Shown: positions 28,602-52,890, numbered from the stretch's first letter. The stretch is DNA of 64,000 bases from Clostridiales bacterium (GCA_003343705.1 QAKR01000010.1:3855-67854), one strand, 5' to 3'. The notes: a model not told the origin generated them from the sequence alone. Program-made: numbers and translations.

Positions 28602-28676
28602 ACATCATATTAATATTTTATTTTAATTACCAAACCCCAATAGAGGGTTGTAATAAATTTTTAGGAGGAATTTTTG

Positions 28677-34960: not shown

Positions 34961-35899
34961 TTAATTACATTCTGCAGTCAACGGACCGGCAAGCTCTTTA
35001 AGATAAAACAGTTTACCGGGAAGTGTAGGTATAAACGTAGAAGTGATGTGCATATCAGGGCCGTAATGGAGCGTTGTAAGGAAGCTCATACCCTGCCAAG
35101 ACATTCCTCTGCCGAGCATGCCGTCAGCCCCACCAATAGCATAATCAGCCTGCAAGAAGAGACCGGGACCTATTGTGTTGGCACGGCACGGTACCAATGT
35201 TGTTCGTGATTTGAAGCTGGTAATAGCATTTTGTTCTATTGTAAGCGGATGAAGCTTTGCACCAATACGGTAATTTTGCTGTTTCCATTCTTCAACGCTC
35301 TTGAATTCAGCTGCAAATTGAGGCTCCCAAAATGCGATATGGCACATTCTGCCTATACCGTATATTAAAACAAGCTTAACGCCTTCGGCTTTAAGTTTTG
35401 CAATTTTTTCAGGATATGTAGGAAGATTTGTTTTTGTTGCAAAATTTCTCTGACTTTCGGGAACTGTTAATTTACCGAGTTTATTAAAGAAAGCTTCTTT
35501 CATTGAATATTCAAAAGAAGCGGGGTCTGTGGATGGCAATGTGTTACCATCCCCGTCTGCCCATTCGTCCATATTAAAAGTATAAACATGTGAGCATGAA
35601 ACATTCCATTCTTTTAGGAAGTAAACAGCCCATTTATACATACCCATCGGTCCGACAGGAATTATCATTGCGAGTTTTTCACCTTTATCGCCGGCCTTTT
35701 TAATCTGCATTGCAATTTCATGCCCCATAAGAGTATCAAAATCGTTTATGTTGTCGCAAGGGATAGGTTTAAATTTCTTGTTCCAGAAGTTTTCTTTTTT
35801 AACGCCTTTTTCACAGCAGGCGTCGATTTTCGCCATATCCCATCCTTGCGGATAAAATCCGTCAAGAAGAGAATCTTTAACGGTAGACATAAAATCCAT
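34961..35899 (-). CDS. NagB/6-phosphogluconolactonase-superfamily sugar-phosphate deaminase/isomerase-like protein (312 aa)
   Basis: FNMDEW (compare NLDEY of NagB) and [15 protein letters not shown] (compare GIGxxGHIAFNEP). It is longer than canonical NagB. GGAGG SD. Confidence 0.65.
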
Positions 35900-35917
35900 A
35901 ATATTACCTCCAAATTA

Positions 35918-36895: not shown

Positions 36896-36924
36896 AATTT
36901 TTAAGTGTCCTTTCTTTTGCTGTT

Positions 36925-37872
36925 TCAACCTGCTTCATGAGTTCTCATATATTCACAGATTTCTTCATAACTTTTAATTCCTGTAGATGCGCCTTTTGCC
37001 ATTATACAAAACGTTCCAACGGCGTTTGCAAGCTTTCCGCAATCTTTAAAAGAAAATCCTTTTGCAAGACCCGTTAAAAATCCTGCACAAAAACTATCAC
37101 CTGCACCGGTTGTATCAACCACTTTTTCTTTTGTGTAAGTAGGAAGATAGATGGGATCAGAATCTTTTGTTTCACGGATATATGCACCGTGTTTACCGTT
37201 TTTGATAACAACGTGTTTTACACCCTTGTCAAAGAAACAGTCTGCAATTTTATCCAAATCTTCTGTCCCCGCAAGCTTTGCTGCTTCATCAATTGAAGGC
37301 ATAAAAACGTCAACATATTGAAGGCAAGGCTCTAAAAGGCTCATCCAGCGATTTTTACTGTCCCATGCAGTGTCAAGGACAGTCATTTTACACATTTCAC
37401 GAGCTTTTTTTAGTGTTCTGGCACAACCGTCTCCGTCAAACGCGTCTAACAGCATCGTTCCGGCAACAAAGACTATTTTTGATTTTTGTATAACATCAAA
37501 GTTAACGTCATTGAAGTCGTATGTTCCGTTTGCGCCGACACAGTGTAAAAACGAACGCTCACCGGTTGATGAAGATAATACAACGGAAGCTGATGTTTGT
37601 GTTTTATTATCAACAACGATCCCATCCACATCAACACCATATTTCACAAGCTCATCTTTAAGAAACGCACCGAAGCTGTCGTTCCCTATCTTGCCCAGAA
37701 CAGCTGTCTTTATACCGATTTTTGCCATGTCTATGCCTGCATTCATCGCACAGCCGCCCGAAAATGTTTCTATACTGTCAACTCTTTCCAAAAGACCGGC
37801 TTCGGGAACTTTATCAACCGGCTTTGTGATAACATCAGCAACAAGGTTGCCTATGCAAGCAACGTCAATCAC
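36925..37872 (-). CDS. PfkB-family carbohydrate kinase
   Basis: Ribokinase-fold motifs GGCAMNAG and DTTGAGDSFCAGFLTGL. The GTG start after AAGGAGG overlaps the upstream stop (GTGA). Confidence 0.8.
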   Translation of the reverse strand: MIDVACIGNLVADVITKPVDKVPEAGLLERVDSIETFSGGCAMNAGIDMAKIGIKTAVLGKIGNDSFGAFLKDELVKYGVDVDGIVVDNKTQTSASVVLSSSTGERSFLHCVGANGTYDFNDVNFDVIQKSKIVFVAGTMLLDAFDGDGCARTLKKAREMCKMTVLDTAWDSKNRWMSLLEPCLQYVDVFMPSIDEAAKLAGTEDLDKIADCFFDKGVKHVVIKNGKHGAYIRETKDSDPIYLPTYTKEKVVDTTGAGDSFCAGFLTGLAKGFSFKDCGKLANAVGTFCIMAKGASTGIKSYEEICEYMRTHEAG

Positions 37873-38567
37873 GGCAATAACCTCCTTGGTTGAACCTTCG
37901 GATAAACAAACGCTTGAGTAAATGCTTCAGCGTATTGCACGCCGCATTGTAATCCCCTGTATTTTGCGCAAGTTCTGACAAAATCCGCAAAATCGATATT
38001 ATCGTGATCACGCATCCACTTTAATTGGCTTTCATGGCACTCAAGCATTTCAAGTTTAAGGTCGAATGTATCTGTTATATCAACATATTCTGTTGGATTA
38101 AACCCATGTCCTGCAAGATTATCCATATAGTAAAGGGGAACAACCTTTGCTGCTTTTCCGGTTCCGTAATGGGGGACAGTTGCTGCAAAAGACGCATCAA
38201 AAACAAGTCTACTTACCGCAACATGGTCACACATATAGTCCGTGGGAGCATGTGTTATTATAAGGTCAGGATCGGCATAACGTATAACATCAATGATTTT
38301 ATTACGCTGATCCATATCGCCGCCGTTTACCAAAAGGTCACCTATATCGCAGGTTATAACCTCTATCCCTGCAAGCTCCCCTGCCCTTTTTGCTTCGCCG
38401 ATACGGATTTTTCTTAACTCGTCCGGCATTAAAACCTCATGGCCCATATTGCCGTTGGCAACATGGCAAACAACAACTTTATCGCCGCGTTTTGCACATT
38501 TTGCAAGAGTTCCGGCGCAATTTATTTCCATATCGTCGGGATGGCACCCGATTGCAAGTACGTTCAT
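37869..38567 (-). CDS. PIG-L/LmbE-family N-acetyl-sugar deacetylase
   Basis: AIGCHPDDMEINCAGTLAK and HxxH-type metal ligands (ITHAPTDYMCDH) are typical of PIG-L deacetylases. Confidence 0.75.
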   Translation of the reverse strand: MNVLAIGCHPDDMEINCAGTLAKCAKRGDKVVVCHVANGNMGHEVLMPDELRKIRIGEAKRAGELAGIEVITCDIGDLLVNGGDMDQRNKIIDVIRYADPDLIITHAPTDYMCDHVAVSRLVFDASFAATVPHYGTGKAAKVVPLYYMDNLAGHGFNPTEYVDITDTFDLKLEMLECHESQLKWMRDHDNIDFADFVRTCAKYRGLQCGVQYAEAFTQAFVYPKVQPRRLLP

Positions 38568-38604
38568 ATAAATACCTCTTCTCGGTCAACAAAAAACCAC
38601 TATT

Positions 38605-39546
38605 TTATTTATTCCAGTTCCATGGCATCAGAATACGCTCATCAACGTCAGAGAAAATCTCCAAAATTTTTGAACGTGTGCTGTCGGAAATTCCCGAAGC
38701 GTTTGTGAGAACAAGATTTTCCTTAACCTGATCGGGAGTTTCACTACCCAAAACAAGGGAGGTAACACCGTCAAGATCACGAATGAAAGTTAAGGCTATT
38801 TCAGCAATGGATTTATTTTCTTCTTCCGAAAGTTTGCGCAGTTTTCTTAAAGGTTCTTTTGCAAGCTGTAAAACACCTTCCGGAAGTGTTTCAGGGTCAC
38901 GGAAGAAAAGCCCCTGTAAAAACACGCTTCTTATAAAGACTATAATATCTGCTTTCTTCAACTTTTCAAGCCCGCCGCAAAGAACGTTTTTAGTATCCAT
39001 CATATTAAGCGGAAGTTGAACAGCTTCATAAAGATCGTTTTTAACAACATCGTCTATGTATTTTGTAGAATTAAGAGAAACACCGACACGCTCAATCAAA
39101 CCTTCACTTTTAAGCTTTTTAAGAGCATTAGGTAAAACGTCACCGTAATCAAACATTTCACTTTCACGGTGAAACATTAGAAGAGGGAGTTTATTATAAC
39201 CGAGCGTCTCAAGTGAATTTTCAACCTGTGCCCGCAAAATTTTCTCAACGTCTTCAAGAGCTGCTGTTTTACCGGTATCTATCATTATTTTAAATTTTGT
39301 TACAATGGTAGGCTTTTTCCCTTTATAAGATTTAAAAAAGTCACCTACAACCTTCTCGCTGTCACCATAACCGGAAGCAGTGTCAACAACTTCAATACCA
39401 CCTTCACATGCTGTAGAAAGAATTTGTGCTGCAGTTTCTGTGGATGGTTTACCAAAAGTATTGTTGATACCGTAGTTTAAACCGAGTTGAACGGCACCGA
39501 GAGAAAGCTCAGATATTTCAAGGCCTCTTTGTGTGACTGTTTTCAT
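38605..39546 (-). CDS. Aldo/keto reductase
   Basis: LSLGAVQLG...IEVVDTASGYGDSEKVVG and a C-terminal LVLGSETPDQVKEN are typical of the AKR fold. Confidence 0.75.
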   Translation of the reverse strand: MKTVTQRGLEISELSLGAVQLGLNYGINNTFGKPSTETAAQILSTACEGGIEVVDTASGYGDSEKVVGDFFKSYKGKKPTIVTKFKIMIDTGKTAALEDVEKILRAQVENSLETLGYNKLPLLMFHRESEMFDYGDVLPNALKKLKSEGLIERVGVSLNSTKYIDDVVKNDLYEAVQLPLNMMDTKNVLCGGLEKLKKADIIVFIRSVFLQGLFFRDPETLPEGVLQLAKEPLRKLRKLSEEENKSIAEIALTFIRDLDGVTSLVLGSETPDQVKENLVLTNASGISDSTRSKILEIFSDVDERILMPWNWNK

Positions 39547-39642
39547 AAAATATAAACATCCCTTTCTTCGGAACTGTACCTATCAAAAATATATTTTTTA
39601 GTACAAGCCCCCGCTTGAAAGAATTATCTTCCAAAATATTTA

Positions 39643-40509
39643 TTAAAGATTGTCAGCTACAGCTTTTTCAATAATCTTTTTCTCGTCTGCTGTTAGCTCT
39701 CTGAACGGAGTACGGCAGCAGCCTACATCAATGCCTGTTGCAACGGTTGTCGCATACTTCATTGCGGGAAGGCCTCTTGTTTCAACAATTGCTTGCACGA
39801 TGTTGTTAATTCTGTGCTGGACATCCTGGCATTCCTTAACTTTGCCTTCGTCAAACAGACGTTTGATTTCAACAAATTTTTCAACTGCATAGTTACAGGA
39901 TGTTCCGATAGCGCCTTTTGCACCACCCATTAAAGCATATGCAAAACATTCATCTGCGCCGCTGTAAACAAATGCGCCTGTCATTTCAATAAGTCTGTCC
40001 ATAAGGTAGTAGTTTACATCTGTATATTTAACGGAGTAGATACGTTCATCAGCAAGAAGCTCCTTAAACTGTGCAAGGCTTAGGCCCACACCTGTTGTTG
40101 CAGGAACATTATATATCATAACGGGGAGATTTGCCGCATCGGCAAGGTCTGTGTAATATTGTTTAATTTCTGAAGATTGGAAACCATGATAAAAAGGAGG
40201 AACAGAAGCAACAGCGCCAGCGCCGGCTTTTTTAGCATGTTGTGCAAGGTCGCAAGCAAGACCTGTGCCGATAGAACCAACATGAGCTACAACCATTTTT
40301 CCGTCAGCAGCTTTAATAGCACATTCAAGTGTCTGCTTTCTTTCTTCCTGTGTTAAAAGGAAACATTCTGCGGAAGATCCGCCTACATAAACACCATCCG
40401 CACCGCGATCAATAACGCTTTTTGTCAATTTTGTAAGTGTTTCGAAGTCTACCGAACCGTCTTTGTTAAATGTAGTAAATAAGGGGACTAGGATTTCTGC
40501 TTTTTTCAT
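39643..40509 (-). CDS. DapA/NanA-family class I aldolase (N-acetylneuraminate-lyase-like)
   Basis: GVYVGGSSAECFLLTQEER (compare GSTGE/GTTGE), MIYNVPATTG, and the Schiff-base lysine context YSVKYTD. It sits in a sugar operon, not a lysine-biosynthesis context. Confidence 0.7.
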   Translation of the reverse strand: MKKAEILVPLFTTFNKDGSVDFETLTKLTKSVIDRGADGVYVGGSSAECFLLTQEERKQTLECAIKAADGKMVVAHVGSIGTGLACDLAQHAKKAGAGAVASVPPFYHGFQSSEIKQYYTDLADAANLPVMIYNVPATTGVGLSLAQFKELLADERIYSVKYTDVNYYLMDRLIEMTGAFVYSGADECFAYALMGGAKGAIGTSCNYAVEKFVEIKRLFDEGKVKECQDVQHRINNIVQAIVETRGLPAMKYATTVATGIDVGCCRTPFRELTADEKKIIEKAVADNL

Positions 40510-40530
40510 TTTAAAAACCTCTTTATAAAA

Positions 40531-40959
40531 TTATTTTTTAGAAATCGTAAGTTTACACTGTGCGTTTGCTGTACCGCTCATATCATAATCGTATTTTAAA
40601 CCCAAAGGTTCAAGAACACGACGATAAAGTAAATCGCAATGTCCGCAGTAATTATGGTAGGGTTCCATGTTTTTCTTATCGAGAAGTCTGCCTTTTGAAG
40701 GACAGTGGTGCATATCAATAACAAAAATATCGTTGTCAAGCGTCATTGTAAAGTCTGCGGCTTCTTCGCTTAAAGCCTTAGCCCAATATTTATAACAACC
40801 TTCAATGCCGTCGGCGTGAACACATTCGCCCAAGCGAGGTGCTACATAGTTATCGGAAATATGTTCCCAATATGTTTTTACACCTTGTTCGCCCTCTCGC
40901 TTTTCAATGAATTTAAAAAGCTCGCTGTAAGAATAGATAAACTCTGTGCATGAAATCAT
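40531..40959 (-). CDS. Small Cys/His-rich protein B (142 aa), unknown function
   Basis: GGAGGTG SD, and its ATG overlaps the upstream stop (ATGA). It contains HHCPSKG...YHNYCGHCD...AQC. It is a paralog of the upstream gene. Confidence 0.7.
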   Translation of the reverse strand: MISCTEFIYSYSELFKFIEKREGEQGVKTYWEHISDNYVAPRLGECVHADGIEGCYKYWAKALSEEAADFTMTLDNDIFVIDMHHCPSKGRLLDKKNMEPYHNYCGHCDLLYRRVLEPLGLKYDYDMSGTANAQCKLTISKK

Positions 40960-41405
40960 TTCTGAGGCACCTCCGAAAAAATGAACTTAGCTTTTCCGGT
41001 CTTTTCGTCGTAATCCGAAAGGTTAAACTCAAAACCACATATTTGAGCTAAAACAGCATAAAGTATTTTTGTTGTATAGCCGTAATATTTTGACGGCTCA
41101 TGGCCTGTAGAGCGCATAAATTTCATTGCCGGACACTCGGATACTTCTACTGTAAGGGAATTTTCAACAATGGATGTTTTTAAAACATCAGATGCGTCCT
41201 CAGCTTCATATATCTTTTTAAAATATTCATCAAGTTCTGCAAGAGTCATTTTACAATAATAACTTTTAGCATAATCTGTCAGATATTCTTTTACGGCATC
41301 CTCGCCGTATCGATCACCTACATAAGCGATTCCCAAATCCAATGAAACATGAAAATCCTTGTGCAAATACTTGTTGTCGGAAGCCCGACGTTCCATTTTT
41401 TGCAT
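40956..41405 (-). CDS. Small protein A (149 aa), paralog of 40531..40959 lacking most Cys ligands
   Basis: SECPAMKFMRSTGHEPSKYYGYTTKILYAVL aligns with HHCPSKGRLLDKKNMEPYHNYCGHCDLLYRRVL in protein B. The ATG at 41405 follows GGAG, whereas the track start at 41420 is a TTG. Confidence 0.65.
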   Translation of the reverse strand: MQKMERRASDNKYLHKDFHVSLDLGIAYVGDRYGEDAVKEYLTDYAKSYYCKMTLAELDEYFKKIYEAEDASDVLKTSIVENSLTVEVSECPAMKFMRSTGHEPSKYYGYTTKILYAVLAQICGFEFNLSDYDEKTGKAKFIFSEVPQK

Positions 41406-41515
41406 ATTATCAATCTCCAAAATAAAAATCGATTTTATGTGCTATTTGTTTAATAAAAAAAGTAGTATAAACTTCTTTAACTTTATTAACGGGAAACCAC
41501 ATTCAAATAGCGACA

Positions 41516-42832
41516 CTATTTACACTCGTTGGCAAGCGAAAGCGCTGTTTTCACAATCTTTTCACCTGCAGTCTCCTCCAAATAGCTTGTGCAACCAAGT
41601 TTTGATTCGTAAACCGTAGGCATAAAGCGATCTTTTGTGGGAATGTAACCGAACAACCCGTTAGAATTTGTTATTATAAAGTTATTTTTAAACGGTGAGT
41701 TTTCTTTAATTTGCTTTCCGTATTCAACAAAAACTTCTCCGGGCAGGGCATAAAACGCCGAGTCGCCGACACGAAAAACTTTAACCGGAACCAGTTTTTC
41801 TGCATTAGTATCTTTTATATAATTGCGTAAATCGTAATCAAATACCAGTTTAAGTTTTTCAGGATCAGATTGTGAACCAAGAATTTCATCGTCATAAAAT
41901 TCTACAGTTTTTTCAAGCTTTTCTATCTCAGATTCAACGTCAAAATCCACTTTTCGTTTTTGAAGAGAGAGTATTTCTGTTTTTTGGCTTACACCATTTC
42001 CATCCAAGAGTTCAGAGATATTAATTGTTTTTAAAACCTCATCAGCAAGTGCGTTGCCCATTACACGATAATATTCAAAAACCGTGTCTTTATCAGTTTT
42101 AACATCAAAATGATTAATGTTTCCGCAAGTGCCAAGTATAAACATTGAAACAAATCGCCATCCGTATTTGTCTTTTAAACGATTTGATAGCTGTGAGGAA
42201 TAATCACCTGAAAATACATATTCGTCAACACAGTCTTGATGACAAGCAAAGTTCGTTATACAGCCAAGAGGCTTTCCGTCTGTATCTTCAGCAAACATAA
42301 CAGTAACATCAGGGTCTATTTCTCCGACAGGCTCGACAATATCCGGATTTCTCTTACCTGGGTTTGTTTGAAACGTTCCGTTCTTCATTTTATAAATTCT
42401 GTGAAATGAAATACTGTCAAGGAACCCGTTGCCGCAACGCAAACGCGCTGGCTTAAGATTAAAGTTTGCAACTATAACAGCGTCAGCTGCTTTGTCGCAA
42501 ACAAGTGATATATATACGGGATCTTTTTTAACAAATCGACCCCAATCAACAGTCGGCCCCGCATTATGTAAATGTGTTGCGCCGACAGTAATATTTTCTT
42601 CTTTAATATCAGTGTTTTCAGCTACGCGTTTTTTTACGCGATCGGCTATATCTTCTGTGATAAAATTAGCATCAATAGATACAAATGCTATTTTTTCACC
42701 GTTACTTTCAAAAAGAACGGTTTTTGCATATATTTTATCTTTTATTGTTTTTGCAAGTCTTTCGTTGAAATATCCGGGCATATTCGTGTAAAGCGACGGA
42801 GTTATATCGCTTTCATAAAATGCAATTTTCAT
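41516..42832 (-). CDS. Neutral/alkaline-ceramidase-fold amidohydrolase-like protein, cytoplasmic
   Basis: The N-terminus MKIAFYESDITP...MPGY...AKTVLFES...FVSIDA and TVGATHLHNAGP resemble the ceramidase N-domain GxTHTHxGP zinc motif. No signal peptide. Confidence 0.55.
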   Translation of the reverse strand: MKIAFYESDITPSLYTNMPGYFNERLAKTIKDKIYAKTVLFESNGEKIAFVSIDANFITEDIADRVKKRVAENTDIKEENITVGATHLHNAGPTVDWGRFVKKDPVYISLVCDKAADAVIVANFNLKPARLRCGNGFLDSISFHRIYKMKNGTFQTNPGKRNPDIVEPVGEIDPDVTVMFAEDTDGKPLGCITNFACHQDCVDEYVFSGDYSSQLSNRLKDKYGWRFVSMFILGTCGNINHFDVKTDKDTVFEYYRVMGNALADEVLKTINISELLDGNGVSQKTEILSLQKRKVDFDVESEIEKLEKTVEFYDDEILGSQSDPEKLKLVFDYDLRNYIKDTNAEKLVPVKVFRVGDSAFYALPGEVFVEYGKQIKENSPFKNNFIITNSNGLFGYIPTKDRFMPTVYESKLGCTSYLEETAGEKIVKTALSLANECK

Positions 42833-42898
42833 TTTAAAAATCCTTTATATAATCCCGTTATTTAATAATAACTAAGATTAGTGTATTCAGCATCAAAC

Positions 42899-42934
42899 GG
42901 CGTTTTTGTTCACCACGCGGTGCACAAAAACGCC
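42899..42934 (-). terminator. Long hairpin between the oxidoreductase and ceramidase-like genes (possible weak terminator/processing site)
   Basis: ggcgtttttgt...acaaaaacgcc outer stem with an inner cacc/ggtg stem. The tail on the reverse strand is only gtttgatg, so termination may be partial. Confidence 0.4.
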
Positions 42935-42952
42935 GCATCCGCAATAAATTAA

Positions 42953-43975
42953 TTATTCAAAAAATTTGTCTACGTTTACAACCTTGTCATTGTCTGCAGC
43001 AAAATAAGAAGCTTCAACAATCTTTTGAACCTGTAAGCCGTCTTTCAGAGGAACTTCAACAGGCGCACCTGTTAAAATAGAGTTAGAGAAGCTTTCAACT
43101 TCTTTAGTATAAAGGTTTGTACATTCAACATCAAGGGTAGGATGTGAACCGTCTTCAAGAGTTATTTCAACAGAACCTGTATCAAGCTGATGTATTGTAT
43201 CAAAAGCTGTTACGCAACCTTTTGTACCGTAAAATTCCAAACGCCATTTAGCAGCGGCATCGGGAATATTGAAGTTTGCTTCAACGAATGCGTTAGTACC
43301 GTTTTTAAGGTGCATCAAAACGCTGGAGCTATCATCAACTTCATATTTAAATGTTTTAGTATCAATAATAGCAGAAACTTTCTCAACTGTTGTGCCGAGT
43401 ATACTCTGGATAAGGTCAATACAGTGAACGCCCATATCAACAAAGGCACCACCACCGCTGTTTTTCTTGATCTGTCTCCAACAGTTAGGCATATCGGGAT
43501 ACCAGCATGTAAATTGAGCTTTTGCAGAAACAACCTGCCCTATTCCACCGTCAGCAATGAATTTTTTAATTGCCTGGTTGTAAGCACCAAATCGCATCAT
43601 AAATCCACAAGCAGACAACACTCCGCAAGCATCAACATCTTTAACAACCTGTTCGCCTTCTTTAACAGTCATGGCAATAGGTTTTTCAAGAAGAATATGT
43701 TTTCCTGCTTTAGCAGCTTTAACTGCTTGTTCTGCATGAAAAACAACAGGAGAAGCTATGTATATTGCCTCAACCTCAGGGTTTGCAATAAGGTCATCGG
43801 CATTTGTATAAGCATACTTTGCATTATATTTAGTCTTTAAACCCTCGATAATCTCGGGGTTAACATCCATAACGGCAATAAGCTCCGCGTTCTTGGCAAG
43901 AACGAGACCGGGCATTGTACGTCTGTCGGCAATACCACCTGCACCGATAACGCCCCATTTAACTTTTCTGTCCAT
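42953..43975 (-). CDS. Gfo/Idh/MocA-family NAD(P)-dependent sugar oxidoreductase
   Basis: KWGVIGAGGIADRR Rossmann N-terminus and the EKP motif (ILLEKPIA). AAGGAG SD. Confidence 0.8.
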   Translation of the reverse strand: MDRKVKWGVIGAGGIADRRTMPGLVLAKNAELIAVMDVNPEIIEGLKTKYNAKYAYTNADDLIANPEVEAIYIASPVVFHAEQAVKAAKAGKHILLEKPIAMTVKEGEQVVKDVDACGVLSACGFMMRFGAYNQAIKKFIADGGIGQVVSAKAQFTCWYPDMPNCWRQIKKNSGGGAFVDMGVHCIDLIQSILGTTVEKVSAIIDTKTFKYEVDDSSSVLMHLKNGTNAFVEANFNIPDAAAKWRLEFYGTKGCVTAFDTIHQLDTGSVEITLEDGSHPTLDVECTNLYTKEVESFSNSILTGAPVEVPLKDGLQVQKIVEASYFAADNDKVVNVDKFFE

Positions 43976-44012
43976 TTTTAAAATTGCTCCTTTCGAAGAT
44001 AGAAATAAACCC

Positions 44013-44040
44013 TAAAAGGGCTGTCAAACGACAGCCCTTG
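44013..44040 (-). terminator. Rho-independent terminator after the DegT-family gene
   Basis: Reverse strand caagggctgtc-gttt-gacagccctttt, followed by agggtttattt, 12 nt after the stop codon. Confidence 0.65.
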
Positions 44041-44051
44041 TTGCAGATTTA

Positions 44052-45326
44052 TTATTTCAGGTTCTCGCTGAGTATTTTCTTGAACACGTCTATGCAACGT
44101 TGAATATGAACCTCTTCCCATGTGGGGTGGAGGAATAATGAAAGTGTAACGTCACGAAGAGATGCAGCTTTCGGACAAAGGACCTTATCGTATTCAACAC
44201 TTGCAGGATCAGTGTATTCTTTTGAATCAAACGGGAATTTAGCAGAGCCGAAACCGGTGTGGTTCTTATATGCGTTCTCGTGGTATGCTTCAGGCCAAAG
44301 AATTCCGCTGCACGGAATTTTTTCTGCAGCAAGCTTTTTGCAGAACTCAGCAGCTGTAATAGCGCATTTGTTCGGATCGAGATTGATGGGATACCACCAG
44401 TAAGAGTTCTTTCTTTCGGCTGTATTAACGGGAAGTTTTGCGATACCGGGAAGTCCTGCAAAAGCTTCGTCGTACATTTTAGCATATTTAAGTCTACGTG
44501 CAAGGTTCCAGCTGTCAAATCTTTCAAGTTCATTAATACCGAGAACTGACTGAGGTTCTGTCATACGGTAGTTGAAACCTACTCTGTTATGTACATAAGG
44601 AAGTTTTTCTTCCATAGCAAGAAGGTTCATTCTTTGTCTTACATCGTAACCGTGGTCACGGAAAGAACGGCACTCCCAAGCAAGGTCTTCATTATTAGTA
44701 ACAACCATACCGCCTTCGCCGCCGGTTGTGAAGTGTTTAGACTGGCAGAAGGAGAAGCATCCTACATCGCCGATCAAACCTGCTTTAACGCCTTTATATT
44801 CACCGCCGAAGCACTGCGCACAGTCTTCAACAATTTTAAGATTATGTTTCTTTGCAATTTCAAGAATCGGGCCCATATCAGCAACTACACCGTAAAGGTG
44901 AACAACCACAATACCCTTTGTTTTAGGAGTGATAAGCTCTTCAATTTTTGAAGGATCAATTGTGTGATCATCAGTAACATCACAGAAAACAGGAATAGCA
45001 CCGGCCTGTACGATTGCGAAAGATGAAGCAATAAAACTGTAAGAAGGAACGATAACTTCATCACCGGGGCCGATATCTAAAGAAGCCAATGCAATGTGAA
45101 GAGCAGCAGTTCCGTTTGTGCAGGAAATAGCAAATTTAGAACCTATCCATTTTGCCCATTTCTCTTCAAACTCAAAACCTTTTTTACCTGTCCAATAATT
45201 TACTTTACCGCTTTTTAAACATTCTACAACATCATCGTAGGACTTGGGGTTAAATTGCGGCCACATGGGAAAACCGAGATCAACTATGCCAGTTCCGTTC
45301 ATTGCGCCGTCTTTTTCTTGTGCCAT
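44052..45326 (-). CDS. DegT/DnrJ/EryC1/StrS-family PLP-dependent sugar aminotransferase
   Basis: TNGTAALHIAL, DVGCFSFCQSKHFTTGGEGGMVVTN (PLP Lys). The ATG at 45326 (MAQEKD) follows AAGGAGAG, and the track start at 45359 adds 11 residues. Confidence 0.8.
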   Translation of the reverse strand: MAQEKDGAMNGTGIVDLGFPMWPQFNPKSYDDVVECLKSGKVNYWTGKKGFEFEEKWAKWIGSKFAISCTNGTAALHIALASLDIGPGDEVIVPSYSFIASSFAIVQAGAIPVFCDVTDDHTIDPSKIEELITPKTKGIVVVHLYGVVADMGPILEIAKKHNLKIVEDCAQCFGGEYKGVKAGLIGDVGCFSFCQSKHFTTGGEGGMVVTNNEDLAWECRSFRDHGYDVRQRMNLLAMEEKLPYVHNRVGFNYRMTEPQSVLGINELERFDSWNLARRLKYAKMYDEAFAGLPGIAKLPVNTAERKNSYWWYPINLDPNKCAITAAEFCKKLAAEKIPCSGILWPEAYHENAYKNHTGFGSAKFPFDSKEYTDPASVEYDKVLCPKAASLRDVTLSLFLHPTWEEVHIQRCIDVFKKILSENLK

Positions 45327-45363
45327 TTTTAATCTCTCCTTATCAATCTTTATATTCATTCAT

Positions 45364-45415: not shown

Positions 45416-48316
45416 TTATTTAACATCTTCGGTAAACAGCATCATAGCGTTTGAAATTGCATATGAACCGACATCTCCTGTTGTGGAGGAAAAGCGTATG
45501 TTACTCACATTTTTAAAGCTTTCATTCTCCGTGTATTCCTTAGGGAGATTAAAGGTTACAACTTTTGTTTCCCCGGGCTCCATCCGGCCCGAATCACCGC
45601 ATGTAATTTCCGAAGAACCAAACGCCATTCTCATAGAAATTCCGAGTACAGGGTCCTTCCCCGTATTAGTAACCATAAAACGTATAGTATTATAACCAGT
45701 TAAATCAGGGGAAGAATCTATAAACGCATTTGATTTTATTGTAAGTCTTGTAAGATTTTTATTAAAGGTTACATTTAAAATACTATCTGAAACAGAAACG
45801 TTTTCACCATATTTATTTGCAGGAATTGATGCAATTGAATTTTTGACATTTTCATCTGCAAGGTCAAATATCATACGACCGTCACTTATCTTTTGCATAA
45901 TAAGTTTTTTAAATATTTCAGTTTTCCCGTTTAATGAAACTTCCACATCATAAAAATGTCTTCCTGCATCCGTAAGCAATATTCTATACTCATAAACATC
46001 ATACTTTTCAGTCTCTTGAGTTAAAATTGCGTCTTTTCCTTCAACTTTTACGGTTGCTCCATGTGGAACATAAAGAGTTAATTCCTTTTTAAATATGTCT
46101 TCAACATTATCAGTTATATCAGAGTTTGTTACCACAAGTGGAATAGTATTGTTAATATCGAGACGAATACTATCACGAACTTTGAAGACAATTTCAGTAT
46201 TTTCAGAAATTATTTTCTTAACACAATTTACAAATGAAGATGACCCCATCTGATCTGCAAGCGAACCGAGATTTTGAGAAACCTGTTTTGTAAACATATT
46301 TTCTGCATTTTGTTCACGTGCAGATATGGTATCAATAGGTAAATCTAGTATTTTAGCGTTTTCTTTATATTTCTTATTTTCAAGCTCCATGTATTCATAA
46401 TCTTCAATACGTTTCAGATACCTGGTGAAAGATTCTCCGTTTACAACAACATTAATTTCACGAAGATTTTCATAAGCAGTTGAAAACACTCCAGAATATA
46501 TACTATATTCACCTTTATTTAATTCTGTTGCCGCTTTGCCGTCAATTAAAACCTGTGAACCCGGTTTTGCATAAACACGGACTTCTCGCTTATTTGTGCT
46601 TTCCTCGTCCATATACGGAAGAACAGTAATTATTGAGTCATTGTCCGACATTATTTCCTGTGCAAGAAGTTGACGCATTTCAAGCATCATTGTTTCGTCA
46701 TGATCAAAATCACCCATTGTATTATATAAAGGTGCATAATAAGTGTCCATTATTTCATCCACAGTCAAATCTGTAATATTCCACTTATCAAGCTTTTGTT
46801 GAATCTTTTCCTGTAAAAGCGTAAGATAAATATTATCTTCAGAACCGTCACGTATACTTTCCATTCGCATTGAGGGAACAGGAATATTCCTGTTTATAAC
46901 TCCGTCATTTTTACCGCCGATATAAACAAGATATCCGTCACCTGCCGAAATAGGAAATGCATATGGGTCAGTCCATTGAGCACGTGTCTCATAGCTGTCT
47001 TTTTCAGGATTATATTTCGCATTGCCAAGGGTTGTAGTCCAGAAAAGATTGCCAGTTATCTGCCAGTCTTTTTGCATCCACATAACAAGGCGGGAAGACA
47101 TCAGATAATCCTGTATATGATACGACGGAAAAGGATAACGAGGACCAATACATCCATACCACTGAACCTCGTCTCCTGCATCAATTCTGTCTGTAACATA
47201 TATTTCTTCTTCAGTTGTTTTGCTTGACCATATCCCGCACCAGGCATCAATGGCTCCGTAAAGAGTTGGTCTTGGGGCTGTTGTTGCTTGTGTTCTAACC
47301 TCAGAAAACAAGGCTTCAAGCGCAGCTTTTTTACCGTGAGCTTCCCTGTTTATGTCATCCCCGTCCGGAGGCTCGTCACGAATAACGTCGGTTACAAGGG
47401 CACTCAGCAGACCATACTCTTTCATTTTATTTAGAAATCTTAAAGAATCGTTACTGATGGAATATGTTCCGTCTGCATTCTTAATAAAACCTACATTATA
47501 TTTTAAGTTTTGCACACGAGGTTTCTCTAAATAAGTTTTATAAATATCTGCCAAGCCTTCCGGAGTATTACTCGACTCATACATATGACCAGGGTTAATA
47601 CGATATTCAAGGAAGAAATCAAAATATTGTCTCACTGTTTGGATATAATCTTCGCCGACATCAGACCCTGTTGCGGCCAATGTATTCCAAAGCGACCACA
47701 TCCAAATTCCGTAATACCCTTCAAAAGGAAGTTCTTCAGGAAGTTCAAAATCCCAGACTTCAATCTCAACGGGGATTTTTATAGTTCCCGAATCATGTGT
47801 GACTGTAACTTCTGCAGTGTAAATACCCTCTGCTTGATCTTTCGGAGTAGTAACAGTTATCCAGAAACCTTGATTTTTCCCGGATTGAACATCAACAGTG
47901 TTTAAATCCTGATATTCAAGAGGGATAAGTGCATCAGGATACCGACCCACAACAGGATATTCAGCAGCTTGTTTTTCAATATAATAGTAATGCTCTCTGA
48001 ATAATTGAACTTTTTTTATTGTCTGTCCGCTTCTGCTTGTTGGGGTCGACATTGAAATGCTGATGTTTTTAACGTCTTCATCAAAATTTAGAATAAATTG
48101 CATACCTTCAGCTTCATTTTTAGCCAGTGAAGCCGTCAATTTATCAATACCGTTGGGAGCAATTTTCTCCTCTGCACGATATTTTTTTGCATTAGAAACG
48201 ATAAATACATTTTCTATACCCATTTGTGTCGGCGCTTTACGGACAACAGCACAAGAGGTAAACATTGCGGAAACAATTGAAAAGATAAGTAAAACAGGAA
48301 TAAACGTCTTTTTCAT
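45416..48316 (-). CDS. DUF4091/GH123-like surface lipoprotein (966 aa)
   Basis: Lipobox AMFTSC. LAKNEAEGMQF, VIRDEPP (Asp-Glu pair), VQWYGCIGPRYPFPSY...RLVMWMQKDWQITGNLFW. Its AGGAGGG SD overlaps the stop codon of the upstream paralog. Confidence 0.8.
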   Translation of the reverse strand: MKKTFIPVLLIFSIVSAMFTSCAVVRKAPTQMGIENVFIVSNAKKYRAEEKIAPNGIDKLTASLAKNEAEGMQFILNFDEDVKNISISMSTPTSRSGQTIKKVQLFREHYYYIEKQAAEYPVVGRYPDALIPLEYQDLNTVDVQSGKNQGFWITVTTPKDQAEGIYTAEVTVTHDSGTIKIPVEIEVWDFELPEELPFEGYYGIWMWSLWNTLAATGSDVGEDYIQTVRQYFDFFLEYRINPGHMYESSNTPEGLADIYKTYLEKPRVQNLKYNVGFIKNADGTYSISNDSLRFLNKMKEYGLLSALVTDVIRDEPPDGDDINREAHGKKAALEALFSEVRTQATTAPRPTLYGAIDAWCGIWSSKTTEEEIYVTDRIDAGDEVQWYGCIGPRYPFPSYHIQDYLMSSRLVMWMQKDWQITGNLFWTTTLGNAKYNPEKDSYETRAQWTDPYAFPISAGDGYLVYIGGKNDGVINRNIPVPSMRMESIRDGSEDNIYLTLLQEKIQQKLDKWNITDLTVDEIMDTYYAPLYNTMGDFDHDETMMLEMRQLLAQEIMSDNDSIITVLPYMDEESTNKREVRVYAKPGSQVLIDGKAATELNKGEYSIYSGVFSTAYENLREINVVVNGESFTRYLKRIEDYEYMELENKKYKENAKILDLPIDTISAREQNAENMFTKQVSQNLGSLADQMGSSSFVNCVKKIISENTEIVFKVRDSIRLDINNTIPLVVTNSDITDNVEDIFKKELTLYVPHGATVKVEGKDAILTQETEKYDVYEYRILLTDAGRHFYDVEVSLNGKTEIFKKLIMQKISDGRMIFDLADENVKNSIASIPANKYGENVSVSDSILNVTFNKNLTRLTIKSNAFIDSSPDLTGYNTIRFMVTNTGKDPVLGISMRMAFGSSEITCGDSGRMEPGETKVVTFNLPKEYTENESFKNVSNIRFSSTTGDVGSYAISNAMMLFTEDVK

Positions 48317-48326
48317 ATCAGCCCTC

Positions 48327-51209
48327 CTAATTCACATTGTTATCAACGGAAACGACCATTATATTTGAAATTTCATAATACTCGTTTTCGCTTGCCCTTT
48401 CAGTCTGTGAAATTTTCAAACTCTGAATATTTTGTAAAGAATTACTATCCAGATAATCTTTAGGGAAGTTTGCAATGACTACTTTTGTTTCACCGGGTAA
48501 TATTGATCCGGAACTACCGCAAACAACATCAGAAGAACCTGCCGCAACAGAAAGAGATAAACCTATTGCTTTATTTGGGCCTGTGTTTTTAACTTCAAAT
48601 CGTATTGCCGTATATCCATCGAAATTATTACCTAAAGTAAAAGAATCCGGTTTTATTGTTATCCTTGAAAGCTTGCCTGAAAATTCTGCTTGAAGAGCTG
48701 AATTTCCAATATTCAAACCTGTTCCGTATTTATTGGTAGATATCTTAGCAATAGCATCTATTGTGTTTTGATTTGTTAAATCCACCAAAAGAGCACCCTT
48801 TTCAACCTGTTGAAGAATAACTTTTTTATATACTTCTGTTTTACCGGCTACAGAAACTTCTACTTCATAAATATAACGGCCGGTGCCAGAAATTTCTATA
48901 TCATATGTAAAAACGTCGTATCCACTTGCCTGTTTCACTAATTCAGCCGAATTCTTCTCAACCTTAACAGATGCTCCGTGAGGTGCATAGAGAGTTAAAC
49001 GTTTTTTCAATACACTGTCTGGGTCGCCGCTTATTTCTGCATTTGTAACAACCAGAGGGATGTTATTATTAAAATCTGTTTTTATACAATCACGTATCTT
49101 ATACGTGGTCTGTATGTCTGTATTTATGATCACCTTTTCGTAATCAATCACGTTGTTTGACTGAGAAAGCTGATCATCCAGAGAGCCTAAATTCTTTATA
49201 TTTTTAGGTGCAAACATATTTTCTTCATACTGAGCTCTTACCTTTTTATAATCAAGAGGTAATCCTAAAGCCTTAACATTGCTGTCAACAGATTCACAGC
49301 CAATTTCTATATACTCATAATCTTCAATGCGCTTAAGATATCTTGAATATTGTTCCCCGTTTATAGAAATTGTTATATGTTTCAGATTCTCGTTGGCAGT
49401 TAAAAATATCGATGAATAGGTGCTGTATTTACCGAAATTAGTCTCAGCTGCTTTGTTGCCAGCTATAACAACATCGGCATTGGGTTCAGCATAAACTCGA
49501 ACCTCTCTCTTATTGGTGCTTTCATCATCCATATATGCCAGTACTGCAACTATCGAACTGTCATTCATAATATCATGCGCCAACTGCTTACGTACTTGCA
49601 GCATATACTCAGGAGAATGGTTGTAATCTCCCATGGTATTATAAAGAGGTGCGTAATATGAATCCATTATCTGATCTGCTGTGACATTATCTATATCCCA
49701 TTCATCAAGCCTTTGTTGAATTTTATTTTGCATAAGACATAAATACTCATTATCTTCATTCCCGTCACGGATACTCTCCAAACGGATCGTCGGAACCGGA
49801 GTATTGTGATTTATAATACCATCATTTTCAGTTCCTATATAAATAAGATACCCATCTCCTGCAGGAGGGAAGGCTTGTGGATCGGTCCACTGATCTCGAG
49901 ATACATAAATTTCTTGTTCTGGTAGATACTTACTATCCACCATGGTGCAATACCAGAAAAGATCACCTGTTATATTCCAATCTTTTTGCATCCATCGAAC
50001 CAATCGTGAGGACATTAATCTGTCCTGAACGTGAAATGTTGGATAAGGCGCTCTTGGAGCCGTACAACCATACCACCAAACTTCATACCCACGTTGTTGC
50101 CAATCCCGTACATATCTTTCAAACGCAGTTGTTTCAGATGACCATATCCCACAGAAAAGATCAATATAGTCTGCAAGAGGTTCACGGGGAGAGGATGTTG
50201 TCATCACTCGCAGATCCGGGGCATACGAATTTATGGCAGCCAGTGTTTCTTTTTGTGATGCGGTTCCATCACCGATTTCATCAAACATATATATATAAGC
50301 TTTTTCAAGGGTCCCGTCGGCACGCATTCTGTCAAGAAGTGCCTTTGTGGCAGAGGTAGGAACGGCAACTCCGTTTTCTATTGTGTAATTGCCCAAAGCA
50401 CTTATATTATAGCTTGTAACACGGGGATCAGAGGCAAACCGCAAAATATCATTGGCGTATTGATCAACATTATTAAACGGTATGGGTAGATGGGTACCGG
50501 TAATCCTGTACTCTTGAAAAAACCAATAATATTGCTCCCACACATCATAATAAGACTGGCCGTTCAATGCATTATTCTTTTGCATTAGGTTGTATGCATT
50601 ATTCCATATTGCATATGCGGTTTCAAAAGATCGCTCTACAGGCAGAGCAAAATCCCACACTTCAATTTCAACCGGGATTTTAATAATTCCTCCGTCATGC
50701 GTAAGAGTTACTTCTCCTGTATAGATACCGGCTGTCTGCTCTTCTGTTGAAGTTACTGTTATCCAATATCCCTGATTTTCACCGGCTTTAATATCAACAG
50801 AGTTGAGGTCATCATATTTAAGAGGAATCATCGCATCCGGATAATATCCATGATTAGCATATCCTGCATTTTTCTCAACTGATATGTAATATTGGCGATA
50901 AGCCTCCGCTGCCAGAATCTCTCCTTTTTCATTTATAAAATCAGTCATTGAGAGAGAAACATTTGAAGCATCTTGATCAAAATTAAGGACAAATTGCATA
51001 CCTTCACCTTCATTTTTAGCAAGGCATGCTGTTAAGGTTTTTTGGTCGTTAGACGGTATATTCTCGTTACGCATATATTTAACTGCGTTTGAAATAATTG
51101 TTACATCTTTAATTGCTGGGGAGGCGGGCTCATATGATACAACCGAACAAGACATAAGCAGTCCTGCCAAGATAGTCGTGAAAACAATTACACATACTGT
51201 TTTTTTCAA
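48327..51209 (-). CDS. DUF4091/GH123-like surface lipoprotein (960 aa), tandem paralog
   Basis: Lipobox LLMSC. LAKNEGEGMQF, YMFDEIG, VWWYGCTAPRAPYPTF...RLVRWMQKDWNITGDLFW. TTG start 6 nt after GGAGGA. Confidence 0.8.
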   Translation of the reverse strand: MKKTVCVIVFTTILAGLLMSCSVVSYEPASPAIKDVTIISNAVKYMRNENIPSNDQKTLTACLAKNEGEGMQFVLNFDQDASNVSLSMTDFINEKGEILAAEAYRQYYISVEKNAGYANHGYYPDAMIPLKYDDLNSVDIKAGENQGYWITVTSTEEQTAGIYTGEVTLTHDGGIIKIPVEIEVWDFALPVERSFETAYAIWNNAYNLMQKNNALNGQSYYDVWEQYYWFFQEYRITGTHLPIPFNNVDQYANDILRFASDPRVTSYNISALGNYTIENGVAVPTSATKALLDRMRADGTLEKAYIYMFDEIGDGTASQKETLAAINSYAPDLRVMTTSSPREPLADYIDLFCGIWSSETTAFERYVRDWQQRGYEVWWYGCTAPRAPYPTFHVQDRLMSSRLVRWMQKDWNITGDLFWYCTMVDSKYLPEQEIYVSRDQWTDPQAFPPAGDGYLIYIGTENDGIINHNTPVPTIRLESIRDGNEDNEYLCLMQNKIQQRLDEWDIDNVTADQIMDSYYAPLYNTMGDYNHSPEYMLQVRKQLAHDIMNDSSIVAVLAYMDDESTNKREVRVYAEPNADVVIAGNKAAETNFGKYSTYSSIFLTANENLKHITISINGEQYSRYLKRIEDYEYIEIGCESVDSNVKALGLPLDYKKVRAQYEENMFAPKNIKNLGSLDDQLSQSNNVIDYEKVIINTDIQTTYKIRDCIKTDFNNNIPLVVTNAEISGDPDSVLKKRLTLYAPHGASVKVEKNSAELVKQASGYDVFTYDIEISGTGRYIYEVEVSVAGKTEVYKKVILQQVEKGALLVDLTNQNTIDAIAKISTNKYGTGLNIGNSALQAEFSGKLSRITIKPDSFTLGNNFDGYTAIRFEVKNTGPNKAIGLSLSVAAGSSDVVCGSSGSILPGETKVVIANFPKDYLDSNSLQNIQSLKISQTERASENEYYEISNIMVVSVDNNVN

Positions 51210-51267: not shown

Positions 51268-52890
51268 TTAAAATTTATAATACCAGCTTAGTCTTCCTGC
51301 AGGGAGAACACTTCCGGAAACGTAATATTCAGAAATATCAAACGGATCTTTGACACTGTCTGCAACTTTAAAATAAAAACCTTCAGTAGCATCTGCACCG
51401 ATAATGTCGCGAGGTATAACAAGTTGCATTGTATTTTTTTCGATTATATAATCTGTTTTTGCATATGAAACAGTAAACCCGGCACAATTAAGTTCATCCA
51501 GGGAGCCTGCACAGCGGCGGTTTGCAACAAATTTATATCCTTCCCAGCCCTGTTTCTTAGGAGTGCCCGCAGATATGAAAACATTCATCCAACCCGGTCG
51601 CATACGGCTTTCAGTAATATCATTTTCAGTTTTTATAAGAAAATAAATATTATTTTTATCATGACTAACACGGACTTCTGTAATATTATTCTCAGCAGGA
51701 TCTGTGTGATAATGTATTTTATTATCATACGCAAAGCTGTCACGGCTGTAATTATCGGAAGTCTGCGGTAAATAAATATTTTTCACATCGTCCCACTGTG
51801 CAAGCCCTTCAGAGATATTAATTTCTTTCATTTTTGCACTTTGAGTAAAAGGAGTTGCTTTTTTAAATTTACGAATATTATTAATCATCTGCATATAGAA
51901 AGCATCACCGTATCCGCCGCGCATCATCTCAACATCGCGGGAATATTCTTCGGAAAAACAATCGCAAAAACCTGTCTCCCCCATGAGATTAAGCTTTTGA
52001 GCACCCCATTCATTCCACCCTGTAACAAACACTTCGTTTACGTCTTCGTTGTTTATAGCAGTGTCCCATTGTTTTTGGAAGTTCTGCCCAAGCCGGAAAG
52101 TGTCATGATTATCGTTACCTTCATGATCATAACCTCTGCCCCAGTTACCTTTTTGAGTATAAAAAATACCTTTTGCATGTTGAGCAACAGAAACACTGAC
52201 AACCCCTTTATGAATAGGCTGAGGATATGTCCATTCCATCCAGGGTAGACCTTTTTCACTAAATTTTTCATTAGGCCACTGAGAAACCCAAACATCAAAA
52301 AATTCATACATTTTAGGATCTTCTGTTTCAAGGTCTGAAGTTGCAACTATAACAGGCTTACCGTTAGGTGAATACCAAACATCAGGATGAAGATTTTTTT
52401 CTTTATAAAAAATTTCCCAAATAATCTGAACAGTCTGAACTGAACCTGAGTTTGTATAGCAGGCAACTTTAGGAACTTTAACTCCTTCTTTTTGGTATCT
52501 CTCAAGCTCTTCCATAATATTCAATATAACCTGTGGATATATTTGTGCATTTGTATTATCAAACAATATGTAGTCTATACCTGCGGCAGACAATAACTCT
52601 ATGTGCTTTCGTATTACAAAACGTTCCTCACTGTTATAATATCCATACAGCGGCTCGCCCCAGTAATGGAAACCCCATGCCGGGCTTTCGTCCGGACCTT
52701 TAACGTCCCATAACGATTCGGGATCTTTCTTTAACAGTTTTTCAATATCGTATATTTCTTTATCGCCTAACTGACCTAACCAGCAAAAATAAAAAATGCC
52801 AACTTTCTTTTTTTCATCAATTGAATCATAAGGCATGATTGTTCTGCCGAACTCATCGATACCGCATAGCGCATTAAAGTTTTTTTCCAT
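51268..52890 (-). CDS. Cytoplasmic glycoside-hydrolase-like protein of unassigned family (540 aa)
   Basis: No signal peptide. VGIFYFCWLGQ...FHYWGEPLYGYYNSEERFVIRKHIELLSAAGIDYILFDNTN...VTGWNEWGAQ looks like a TIM-barrel GH-like fold with a C-terminal beta-sandwich. GGTGGGA SD. It is the first gene of the island. Confidence 0.55.
   Translation of the reverse strand: MEKNFNALCGIDEFGRTIMPYDSIDEKKKVGIFYFCWLGQLGDKEIYDIEKLLKKDPESLWDVKGPDESPAWGFHYWGEPLYGYYNSEERFVIRKHIELLSAAGIDYILFDNTNAQIYPQVILNIMEELERYQKEGVKVPKVACYTNSGSVQTVQIIWEIFYKEKNLHPDVWYSPNGKPVIVATSDLETEDPKMYEFFDVWVSQWPNEKFSEKGLPWMEWTYPQPIHKGVVSVSVAQHAKGIFYTQKGNWGRGYDHEGNDNHDTFRLGQNFQKQWDTAINNEDVNEVFVTGWNEWGAQKLNLMGETGFCDCFSEEYSRDVEMMRGGYGDAFYMQMINNIRKFKKATPFTQSAKMKEINISEGLAQWDDVKNIYLPQTSDNYSRDSFAYDNKIHYHTDPAENNITEVRVSHDKNNIYFLIKTENDITESRMRPGWMNVFISAGTPKKQGWEGYKFVANRRCAGSLDELNCAGFTVSYAKTDYIIEKNTMQLVIPRDIIGADATEGFYFKVADSVKDPFDISEYYVSGSVLPAGRLSWYYKF

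Follow-up and report, generated by a model that had tools for sequence, protein, structure and literature searches.

What do two large lipoproteins, encoded side by side at positions 45416 to 51209 of a 64,000-nucleotide (nt) stretch of Clostridiales bacterium DNA (GCA_003343705.1 QAKR01000010.1:3855-67854; 36% GC; the whole stretch is referred to here as the window), do for the cell that makes them? A preliminary description had read the pair as part of a four-copy family resembling glycoside hydrolase family 123 (GH123), with a C-terminal half of no recognized kind. The computational analysis reported here indicates that both proteins are probably lipid-anchored enzymes similar to NgaCa of GH123 Group 1, which carry an accessory, glycan-holding tail and form the front end of a nutrient-harvesting locus. 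The family members in the window are listed below, with coordinates taken from open reading frames (ORFs) and protein lengths in amino acids (aa).

48327..51209, minus strand: upstream tandem gene, 960 aa, TTG start; Group-1-like GH123 lipoprotein with C-terminal accessory block (ORF, Shine-Dalgarno sequence, AlphaFold2 model, Foldseek)
45416..48316, minus strand: downstream tandem gene, 966 aa, ATG start, architecture as the upstream copy (ORF, identity to DBX47_01350, PF22680 and PF19543 matches)
4077..6893, minus strand: third full-length paralogue, 938 aa, Asp-Glu codons at 5982..5987, in an unrelated gene context
1..537, minus strand: fourth paralogue, truncated at the window edge so that only its N-terminal 179 aa are present, lipobox ATGC

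The upstream gene has an AGGAGG sequence 7 nt before its TTG start codon, and the two tandem genes are separated by only 10 nt (GAGGGCTGAT), with the TAG stop of the upstream gene lying inside TAGGAGGG, which serves the downstream gene as Shine-Dalgarno sequence. The tandem proteins share 47% identity along their whole length (970 aligned columns; BLASTP E=0), the third paralogue is 35-37% identical over its full length, and the truncated fourth ORF is 30-34% identical over its 179 residues (E 1e-16 to 1e-20). Both the tight layout and the single family of four copies put forward in the preliminary description are thus borne out by the coordinates and identities. The downstream protein is 100% identical to NCBI DBX47_01350 (P0001) of a "Clostridiales bacterium" metagenome-assembled genome (MAG), and the same locus-tag prefix is found on two shorter family members (P0035 and P0044), so that the genome holds at least six copies.

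All four copies begin with a basic and hydrophobic signal, read from the sequence, that ends in a lipobox cysteine (LMSC, FTSC, ISAC and ATGC), in agreement with the lipoprotein signals noted earlier, and Cys21 of the upstream copy is invariant in 22 homologues. Cleavage at the lipobox would leave this cysteine lipid-anchored at the N-terminus, and both tandem products are therefore predicted to be cell-surface lipoproteins of a Gram-positive gut Clostridia bacterium.

51147..51209, minus strand: signal peptide of the upstream copy, ending in lipobox LMSC at Cys21 (sequence; Cys21 invariant in 22 homologues)

The assignment of residues ~36-550 to a GH123 module, consisting of an N-terminal beta-sandwich followed by a (beta/alpha)8 barrel, is supported by sequence profiles and by structure prediction.

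50646..51104, minus strand: N-terminal beta-sandwich, residues 36-188, with the LAKNEGEGMQF motif (PF22680 at residues 40-170; strands in the model)
49566..50624, minus strand: (beta/alpha)8 module and trailing helices, residues 196-548, including the WWYGC...WMQKDW...TG.LFW block (profile alignment, Foldseek, conservation)

The GH123 N-terminal domain model PF22680 scored 44.2 bits for the upstream copy and 31.3 bits for the downstream copy, both above its cutoff of 27, while the third copy fell just under it at 24.8 bits. A family profile was built from 22 sequences and run against the PDB, where it matched NgaCa (8K2F, Group 1; E=1.4e-47, 165 bits) over profile positions 56-501 and chain residues 36-471, followed by NgaDssm (8K2J, Group 3; E=2.2e-37, 131 bits), NgaAt (8K2H, Group 2; E=3.3e-30, 108 bits) and the canonical enzyme BvGH123 (5L7R; E=1.5e-10, 43 bits); Group 4 enzymes gave no sequence match in this search. 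The full-length AlphaFold2 model of the upstream copy (per-residue confidence score, pLDDT, 83.4; predicted template modelling score, pTM, 0.82) was compared with the PDB using Foldseek, and the best 22 matches were all GH123 structures, with NgaCa first (E 3e-27; template modelling (TM) score 0.72-0.75 normalised on the target). Membership in GH123 is thereby borne out by PF22680 in the tandem pair and by profile and Foldseek matches to solved enzymes.

An adjacent Asp-Glu pair had been proposed as the catalytic dyad and, according to a translation check, corresponds to D310/E311 in the upstream copy, D314/E315 in the downstream copy and D303/E304 in the third copy.

50277..50282, minus strand: catalytic Asp310-Glu311 codons (FDEIG) of the upstream copy (aligned to the Asp-Glu pair of four solved GH123 enzymes)
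47372..47377, minus strand: catalytic Asp314-Glu315 codons (RDEPP) of the downstream copy (translation and alignment)

The pair shares an alignment column with ADEIG of NgaCa, ADEPV of NgaDssm, WDEPL of NgaAt and MDERP of BvGH123, a match that comes from the sequence-profile alignment and the whole-fold match, not from a residue-level three-dimensional overlay. In those solved enzymes this motif is the catalytic motif of GH123 (PMC11087588), and at that level of comparison the proposed dyad coincides with the GH123 catalytic residues. It is invariant in all 22 sequences. The other motifs that had been described as shared are likewise upheld by the 22-sequence alignment, in which A64, E67, E69, M71, Q72 and F73 of LAKNExEGMQF and the WWYGC...WMQKDW...TG.L.W block are invariant. 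Nine residues are conserved across all GH123 groups, namely structural D, W, Y, R and G, catalytic D and E, and substrate-contacting Y and W (PMC11087588). In our own reading of the profile alignments, eight of the nine map to positions that are invariant in the 22 sequences (D125, W149, D310, E311, Y380, G415, W419 and R476), and the ninth, Y457, is found in each of the three window paralogues and, overall, in 13 of the 22 sequences. According to the mechanism described for the family (PMC11087588), the Asp would orient and polarise the 2-acetamido group of the substrate for attack on C1 and the Glu would act as general acid/base; the likely reaction is retaining, substrate-assisted cleavage of a beta-linked N-acetylhexosamine, probably beta-N-acetylgalactosamine (beta-GalNAc).

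GH123 has been re-drawn into a canonical family and Groups 1-4 (PMC11087588, Sumida et al. 2024), and by both sequence and structure the window proteins are nearer to NgaCa of Group 1 than to Groups 2-4 or the canonical family. NgaCa is a retaining and strictly oligosaccharide-releasing enzyme with a cleft-shaped site that may take in the interior of long chains, whereas exo enzymes shut the -2 subsite with extra loops (PMC11087588). The likeness to NgaCa of Cohnella abietis (PDB 8K2F/8K2G), the best sequence and the best structural match, extends to the beta-sandwich and (beta/alpha)8 barrel, the Asp-Glu column and the size of the core, at ~17% identity in the structural alignment. The catalytic module covers 446 profile positions, compared with 436 residues in NgaCa, without large insertions relative to NgaCa, and W202 (17 of 22 sequences) aligns with the NgaCa tryptophan that we equate with subsite residue W197. 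Because the module is close to the minimal NgaCa core in size and is most closely related to NgaCa, we infer an endo-like, oligosaccharide-releasing beta-N-acetylhexosaminidase with an open cleft. The window proteins differ from NgaCa in being lipoproteins and in carrying a ~410-aa C-terminal block that is absent from the 516-residue solved NgaCa chain.

This C-terminal half had been described as a conserved, unassigned region of ~430 aa beginning near residue 520. Its conservation and its lack of a known family stand, but the trailing helices of the catalytic module extend to ~550, which shifts the boundary and shortens the block to ~410 aa. The region beyond ~residue 550 is 46% identical within the tandem pair and 29-30% identical to the third copy. 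No significant match to residues ~551-960 was found in Pfam (E up to 10) or NCBIfam (E up to 1), and sequence and profile searches of the PDB gave chance-level matches only (E >= 0.2). An AlphaFold2 model of the C-half based on a 16-sequence alignment (pLDDT 88.4, pTM 0.82) resolved four domains, d1-d4, whose positions in the upstream copy are as follows.

49332..49553, minus strand: d1, residues 553-626, immunoglobulin (Ig)-like beta-sandwich that bears the REVRVYAEP..V.I.G motif and is restricted to the ~930-1000-aa clade (C-half model; homology to d3)
49035..49322, minus strand: d2, residues 630-725, alpha/beta linker domain, loop partly of low confidence (AlphaFold2 models)
48783..49007, minus strand: d3, residues 735-809, second Ig-like beta-sandwich, which repeats d1 and carries the LTLYAPHGASVKVE motif (hhalign, model)
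48345..48716, minus strand: d4, residues 832-955, larger terminal beta-sandwich/jelly-roll resembling a carbohydrate-binding module (CBM) (local Foldseek, profile matches)

Carbohydrate-binding or Ig-like modules had been suggested as folds to look for in this half, and two Ig-like sandwiches and a CBM-like jelly-roll were indeed recovered. Domains d1 and d3 are homologous (hhalign probability 97%, E=3e-11), so the REVRVYA... and LTLY.PHGA.VKVE motifs belong to two copies of one Ig-like repeat. Local Foldseek matches for d4 were the CBM-bearing sialidase 1W8O, which carries a galactose-binding module (root-mean-square deviation (rmsd) 2.8 Å over 130 columns), and GH50 agarase 6XJ9 (rmsd 3.5 Å over 163), as well as the mannanase CBM 1WKY, CBM11, CBM4, CBM29 and the surface glycan-binding protein SGBP-B, with fold-level likeness also to CBM32 and CBM6-like domains. 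No Pfam or PDB sequence match places d4 in a defined CBM family, and as modelled it is CBM-like by fold while standing outside any named one. When the C-half model was searched as a whole, Foldseek returned low-TM, domain-level CBM and Ig matches, including a multi-modular xanthanase, and no single homologous multi-domain structure.

The distribution of the block was assessed with a C-half profile search of 1.84 billion representative proteins, which yielded only 68 matches. The whole four-domain block occurs in ~10 of these, all ~930-970-aa proteins, and the four-domain version is confined to ~930-1000-aa proteins of uncultured gut Clostridia, while the d2-d4 part is also found C-terminally in GH123 relatives of 700-1100 aa. 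One of these is a 1076-aa Cohnella silvisoli protein annotated as "glycoside hydrolase domain-containing / DUF4091" (P0036; hhalign 95%, E=3e-8 for the d2-d4 part), in which a Group-1-like catalytic part is followed by d2-d3-d4; ~700-800-aa Clostridia relatives share this plan, all of them lacking d1, unlike the window proteins, and in some relatives of this type SLH, ChW, CBM9 or other anchoring modules replace the lipobox. Domain d4 also weakly matches repeated modules of GH16/GH42 proteins with Agarase_CBM, Mann_GBD_bact or galactose-binding-like domains, and beyond such weak beta-sandwich-module matches the profile search found no link to annotated families. Xanthanase 6FHJ and SGBP-B (7KWC/7K44) are likewise lipid-anchored or secreted chains of Ig-like sandwiches ending in a CBM-like jelly-roll, but the likeness is at the fold level (TM 0.22-0.27 on the query, 8-15% identity), with no sequence-family relationship to the window proteins. 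The C-half is a lineage-restricted accessory block of Ig-like spacers with a CBM-like end rather than another catalytic module. From the pTM of 0.82 of the full-length model, it seems to pack into a rigid body with the modelled catalytic module, and it presumably positions or holds a polymeric glycan.

The pair lies inside a co-directional minus-strand run of 15 genes with short gaps, from 52890 down to 34961, with one gene upstream of the pair and twelve downstream. This run looks like an operon, with co-transcription suggested by the arrangement; a promoter and terminator scan of the cluster gave counts at or below shuffle expectation and was uninformative on operon boundaries.

51268..52890, minus strand: 540-aa protein directly upstream of the pair (no Pfam match; kept beside the GH123 gene in loci L001 and L016 of other genomes)
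34961..45359, minus strand: twelve co-directional downstream genes (Pfam, NCBIfam and PDB matches), among them those that follow
Downstream cluster, minus strand: DegT aminotransferase (NCBIfam PseC/LegC, far below cutoff)
Downstream cluster, minus strand: Gfo/Idh/MocA oxidoreductase, AFR/IolG-like (PDB 1,5-anhydrofructose reductase)
Downstream cluster, minus strand: ceramidase-N-like amidase (neutral ceramidase)
Downstream cluster, minus strand: two small Cys/His-rich ORFs (no match)
Downstream cluster, minus strand: NanA-like lyase (PDB E 1e-46; 236 bits against a cutoff of 281)
Downstream cluster, minus strand: aldo-keto reductase (Pfam Aldo_ket_red, PF00248, E 1e-31)
Downstream cluster, minus strand: PIG-L deacetylase (BshB1-like)
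Downstream cluster, minus strand: PfkB kinase (YdjH)
Downstream cluster, minus strand: MtlD-like dehydrogenase (mannitol-1-phosphate 5-dehydrogenase)
Downstream cluster, minus strand: 312-aa protein (weakly NagB-like)

The downstream genes look like a set for cytoplasmic amino-sugar catabolism, to which the tandem pair would be linked by its position. Their order is the same in L001 (12967-22910), L002 and L016, at 75-94% identity. The 540-aa gene adjoins the GH123 gene in all syntenic loci (79% identity in L001 and L016); its product has no obvious N-terminal signal sequence when read by eye, a PDB search with it gave only noise, and it belongs to a large family of "hypothetical proteins" (2791 matches at E<=1e-5), some of which show sub-threshold GH99 matches (PF16317, 24-29 bits, where the cutoff is 33). 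Distant, Group-1-like GH123 genes from MAGs of Bacteroidia, Planctomycetota and Anaerolineales (L086, L083, L032 and L040) adjoin Gfo/Idh/MocA, PIG-L, DegT or ceramidase-like genes, and in the Bacteroidia MAG (L086, 109-10293) the GH123 gene stands beside a GH20 gene, a GH42-like gene and a second GH123 gene. The recurrence of such neighbours across phyla hints at a functional link. Because the pair is embedded among catabolic-type genes, as are these distant relatives, a nutritional role is the most likely one here: the lipoproteins would carry out the extracellular first step of a nutrient-harvesting locus, and the cluster genes would then direct the products into cytoplasmic amino-sugar catabolism.

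Several observations weigh against this reading. PF13320.12 (GH123_cat, formerly DUF4091) found no match at E<=10 in the three full-length window proteins, and since the domain is listed only in the precomputed PF13320.13 annotation, for P0001 (identical to the downstream protein) and its orthologue P0002, the window proteins are divergent members of GH123; their assignment to GH123 stands independently of this model. The barrel loops at 385-397 and 446-452 were modelled with pLDDT <50, so that the site may be a cleft or a pocket, and the position aligned to NgaCa W218 is not a tryptophan while W249 is unmappable, so that one of three subsite tryptophans was mapped. NgaMg, the other Group 1 protein tried, was inactive on every substrate tested, and the natural substrate of NgaCa is not known (PMC11087588). 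The CBM-like matches of the modelled tail are at the fold level, with low TM on the whole query, and pointed to no binding-site residues, and no transporter is encoded in the 15-gene cluster. In other genomes, the family is found beside capsule genes, a sortase, a GH25 surface protein or a PglF-like dehydratase, and because of these non-catalytic or cell-envelope contexts a nutritional role of the family is not general. As a separate observation, GH123_cat annotation of the clade depends on the version of the Pfam model (PF13320.12 or PF13320.13).

The same contexts bear on the possibility that the enzymes use the same chemistry to remodel the cell's own envelope glycopolymer (a capsule, a secondary cell-wall polymer or a lipoglycan) and not external glycans. 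In L004/L005, tandem genes of the family adjoin Wzz/CpsB capsule genes, a sortase gene and the gene of a surface protein with GH25, and in L006/L007 they adjoin a PglF/CapD-type dehydratase gene; other Group 1/3 members have capsule, O-antigen and lipoprotein neighbourhoods (PMC11087588), and the proteins are lipid-anchored at the cell's own surface. However, the gene stands amid lyase, kinase, dehydrogenase and deacetylase genes in the window, L001 and L016, the Bacteroidia relative is found in a GH20/GH42-like/PIG-L/Gfo cluster, and no polysaccharide-synthesis genes lie beside the pair in the window, all of which make self-remodelling unlikely at this locus. A role on bacterial envelope polymers in the wider sense, own or foreign, stays a live alternative because of the capsule, sortase, GH25 and PglF-like neighbours elsewhere.

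A more specific version of the catabolic reading would make the pair a non-redundant, endo-acting front end of an undescribed route for N-acylated amino-sugar or nonulosonate glycans, which we regard as a long shot. Candidate substrates would include bacterial surface polysaccharides and sialylated host glycans, with the Ig/CBM block setting the polymer specificity of each copy. The route would run through the NanA-like lyase, two deacylases (PIG-L and ceramidase-like), the AFR/IolG-like reductase, a PseC/LegC-like DegT transaminase working in the catabolic direction, the YdjH-like kinase, the MtlD-like dehydrogenase and the NagB-like protein. The downstream gene set matches none of the known Nag, Aga and Nan pathways, from which such a route, if true, would differ, and a literature search for an amino-sugar catabolic pathway with DegT, MocA (Gfo/Idh/MocA) and PIG-L components found none.

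It is similarly improbable that the pair are classical exo beta-N-acetylgalactosaminidases that remove beta-GalNAc from the ends of host glycans, among them the Sda antigen and GM2/GA2-type glycolipids. Canonical GH123 enzymes (NgaP, CpNga123 and BvGH123) and SiaBb3 of B. bifidum act in this way, the relatives of the window proteins come largely from human-gut MAGs, and the NanA-like lyase of the cluster would suit sialylated epitopes. Canonical enzymes (BvGH123 5L7R, CpNga123 5FQE and NgaP) also share the fold and the Asp-Glu dyad, all falling within the top 22 Foldseek matches (TM 0.56-0.65). Their sequence relation to the window proteins is nonetheless far weaker (E 1e-10 to 2e-3, against 1e-47 for the strictly oligosaccharide-releasing NgaCa), and the exo enzymes of Group 4 are not matched by sequence at all. 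The extra hairpins and loops with which canonical enzymes, acting on glycolipid or mucin termini, shut the -2 subsite have no counterpart among insertions relative to NgaCa, canonical enzymes have no comparable C-terminal block, and no sialidase is encoded in the cluster.

Lastly, the idea that the proteins are non-catalytic surface glycan-binding proteins with a GH123-like fold as mere scaffold, which could draw on the resemblance of the C-terminal block to Bacteroides SGBP-B proteins and CBMs, the lack of detectable activity in the Group 1 homologue NgaMg and evolution faster than that of the neighbours (67% against 75-94% identity), was rejected as very improbable, since the Asp-Glu pair and other family-wide residues are invariant in the 22 sequences, both tandem partners of every lineage among them, which would be unexpected for a degenerate active site.

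Uncultured Clostridia/Eubacteriales MAGs, several from human-gut collections, were the only source of full-length relatives, and neighbor-joining trees place the tandem genes as co-paralogues. The downstream copy and its orthologue P0002 from another Clostridia MAG are 67-68% identical and group together, with the upstream copy branching outside them. The related species (L001) keeps the surrounding cluster at 75-94% identity with a single GH123 gene, and two readings fit this pattern: either the duplication is older than the species split and one copy was lost, or the upstream copy diverged unusually fast. When L001 (10001-12910) was compared with the window (45416-48316), the GH123 proteins were 67-68% identical and the 540-aa neighbors 79%, against 75-94% for the downstream cluster genes (nine of eleven at 83-94%), and the surface enzyme has thus changed faster than most genes of its operon. 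Four other locus types (L003/L008, L004/L005/L010, L009 and L006/L007) also hold tandem pairs or a triplet, and in the neighbor-joining tree tandem partners cluster by lineage, which implies either that duplication happened repeatedly or that the copies evolved in concert; genes of a distinct ~750-aa type are interleaved in some arrays (L006b and L009b). The suggestion that the two copies differ in specificity and do not simply add dosage is compatible with a pair that may predate the species split and with the recurrent arrays. Retention of the Asp-Glu dyad in every copy (22 of 22) would be compatible with sub-functionalisation without proving it.

Other genes in the window were recorded alongside the family. 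A 643-aa protein with a C-terminal type I dockerin (722-2653, plus strand) and a 206-aa protein with a cohesin followed by a dockerin (33807-34427, plus strand) indicate that the organism has parts of a cellulosome-like, possibly "mucinolysome"-like, assembly. The GH123 lipoproteins themselves lack a dockerin. Owing to the cohesin and dockerin genes, membership in the Limousia "mucinolysome" group was considered, and there was no evidence either way. The nearest transporter to the cluster is an Opp/Dpp-type ABC transporter with a family-5 solute-binding protein (24215-30458, plus strand). A 210-aa ORF (13932-14564, minus strand) matches only the first ~97 of 262 positions of the NgoPII restriction endonuclease profile and may be a truncated or divergent restriction enzyme, and AddA- and AddB-type helicase-nuclease genes lie at 55304-62039 on the minus strand, their listed ORFs sharing 41 nt (58701-58741).

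The 2024 revision of GH123 took in distant groups whose natural substrates are not known, and Group 1, the endo-like and oligosaccharide-releasing type, rests on one active enzyme. To this, the present analysis adds a clade of lipid-anchored, Group-1-like proteins with a four-domain accessory block, usually in tandem arrays and from uncultured, largely human-gut Clostridia, in which the C-terminal half represents a narrowly distributed arrangement of ordinary accessory modules. The clade leaves the understanding of the GH123 mechanism unchanged, and it brings a gain in annotation, as most of the protein escapes current Pfam and NCBIfam models. The window proteins offer concrete constructs toward a predicted endo-beta-GalNAc-ase activity on mucin or bacterial polysaccharides, and the conserved, apparent amino-sugar catabolic cluster provides a handle on the natural substrate, which it could reveal for Group 1 GH123.

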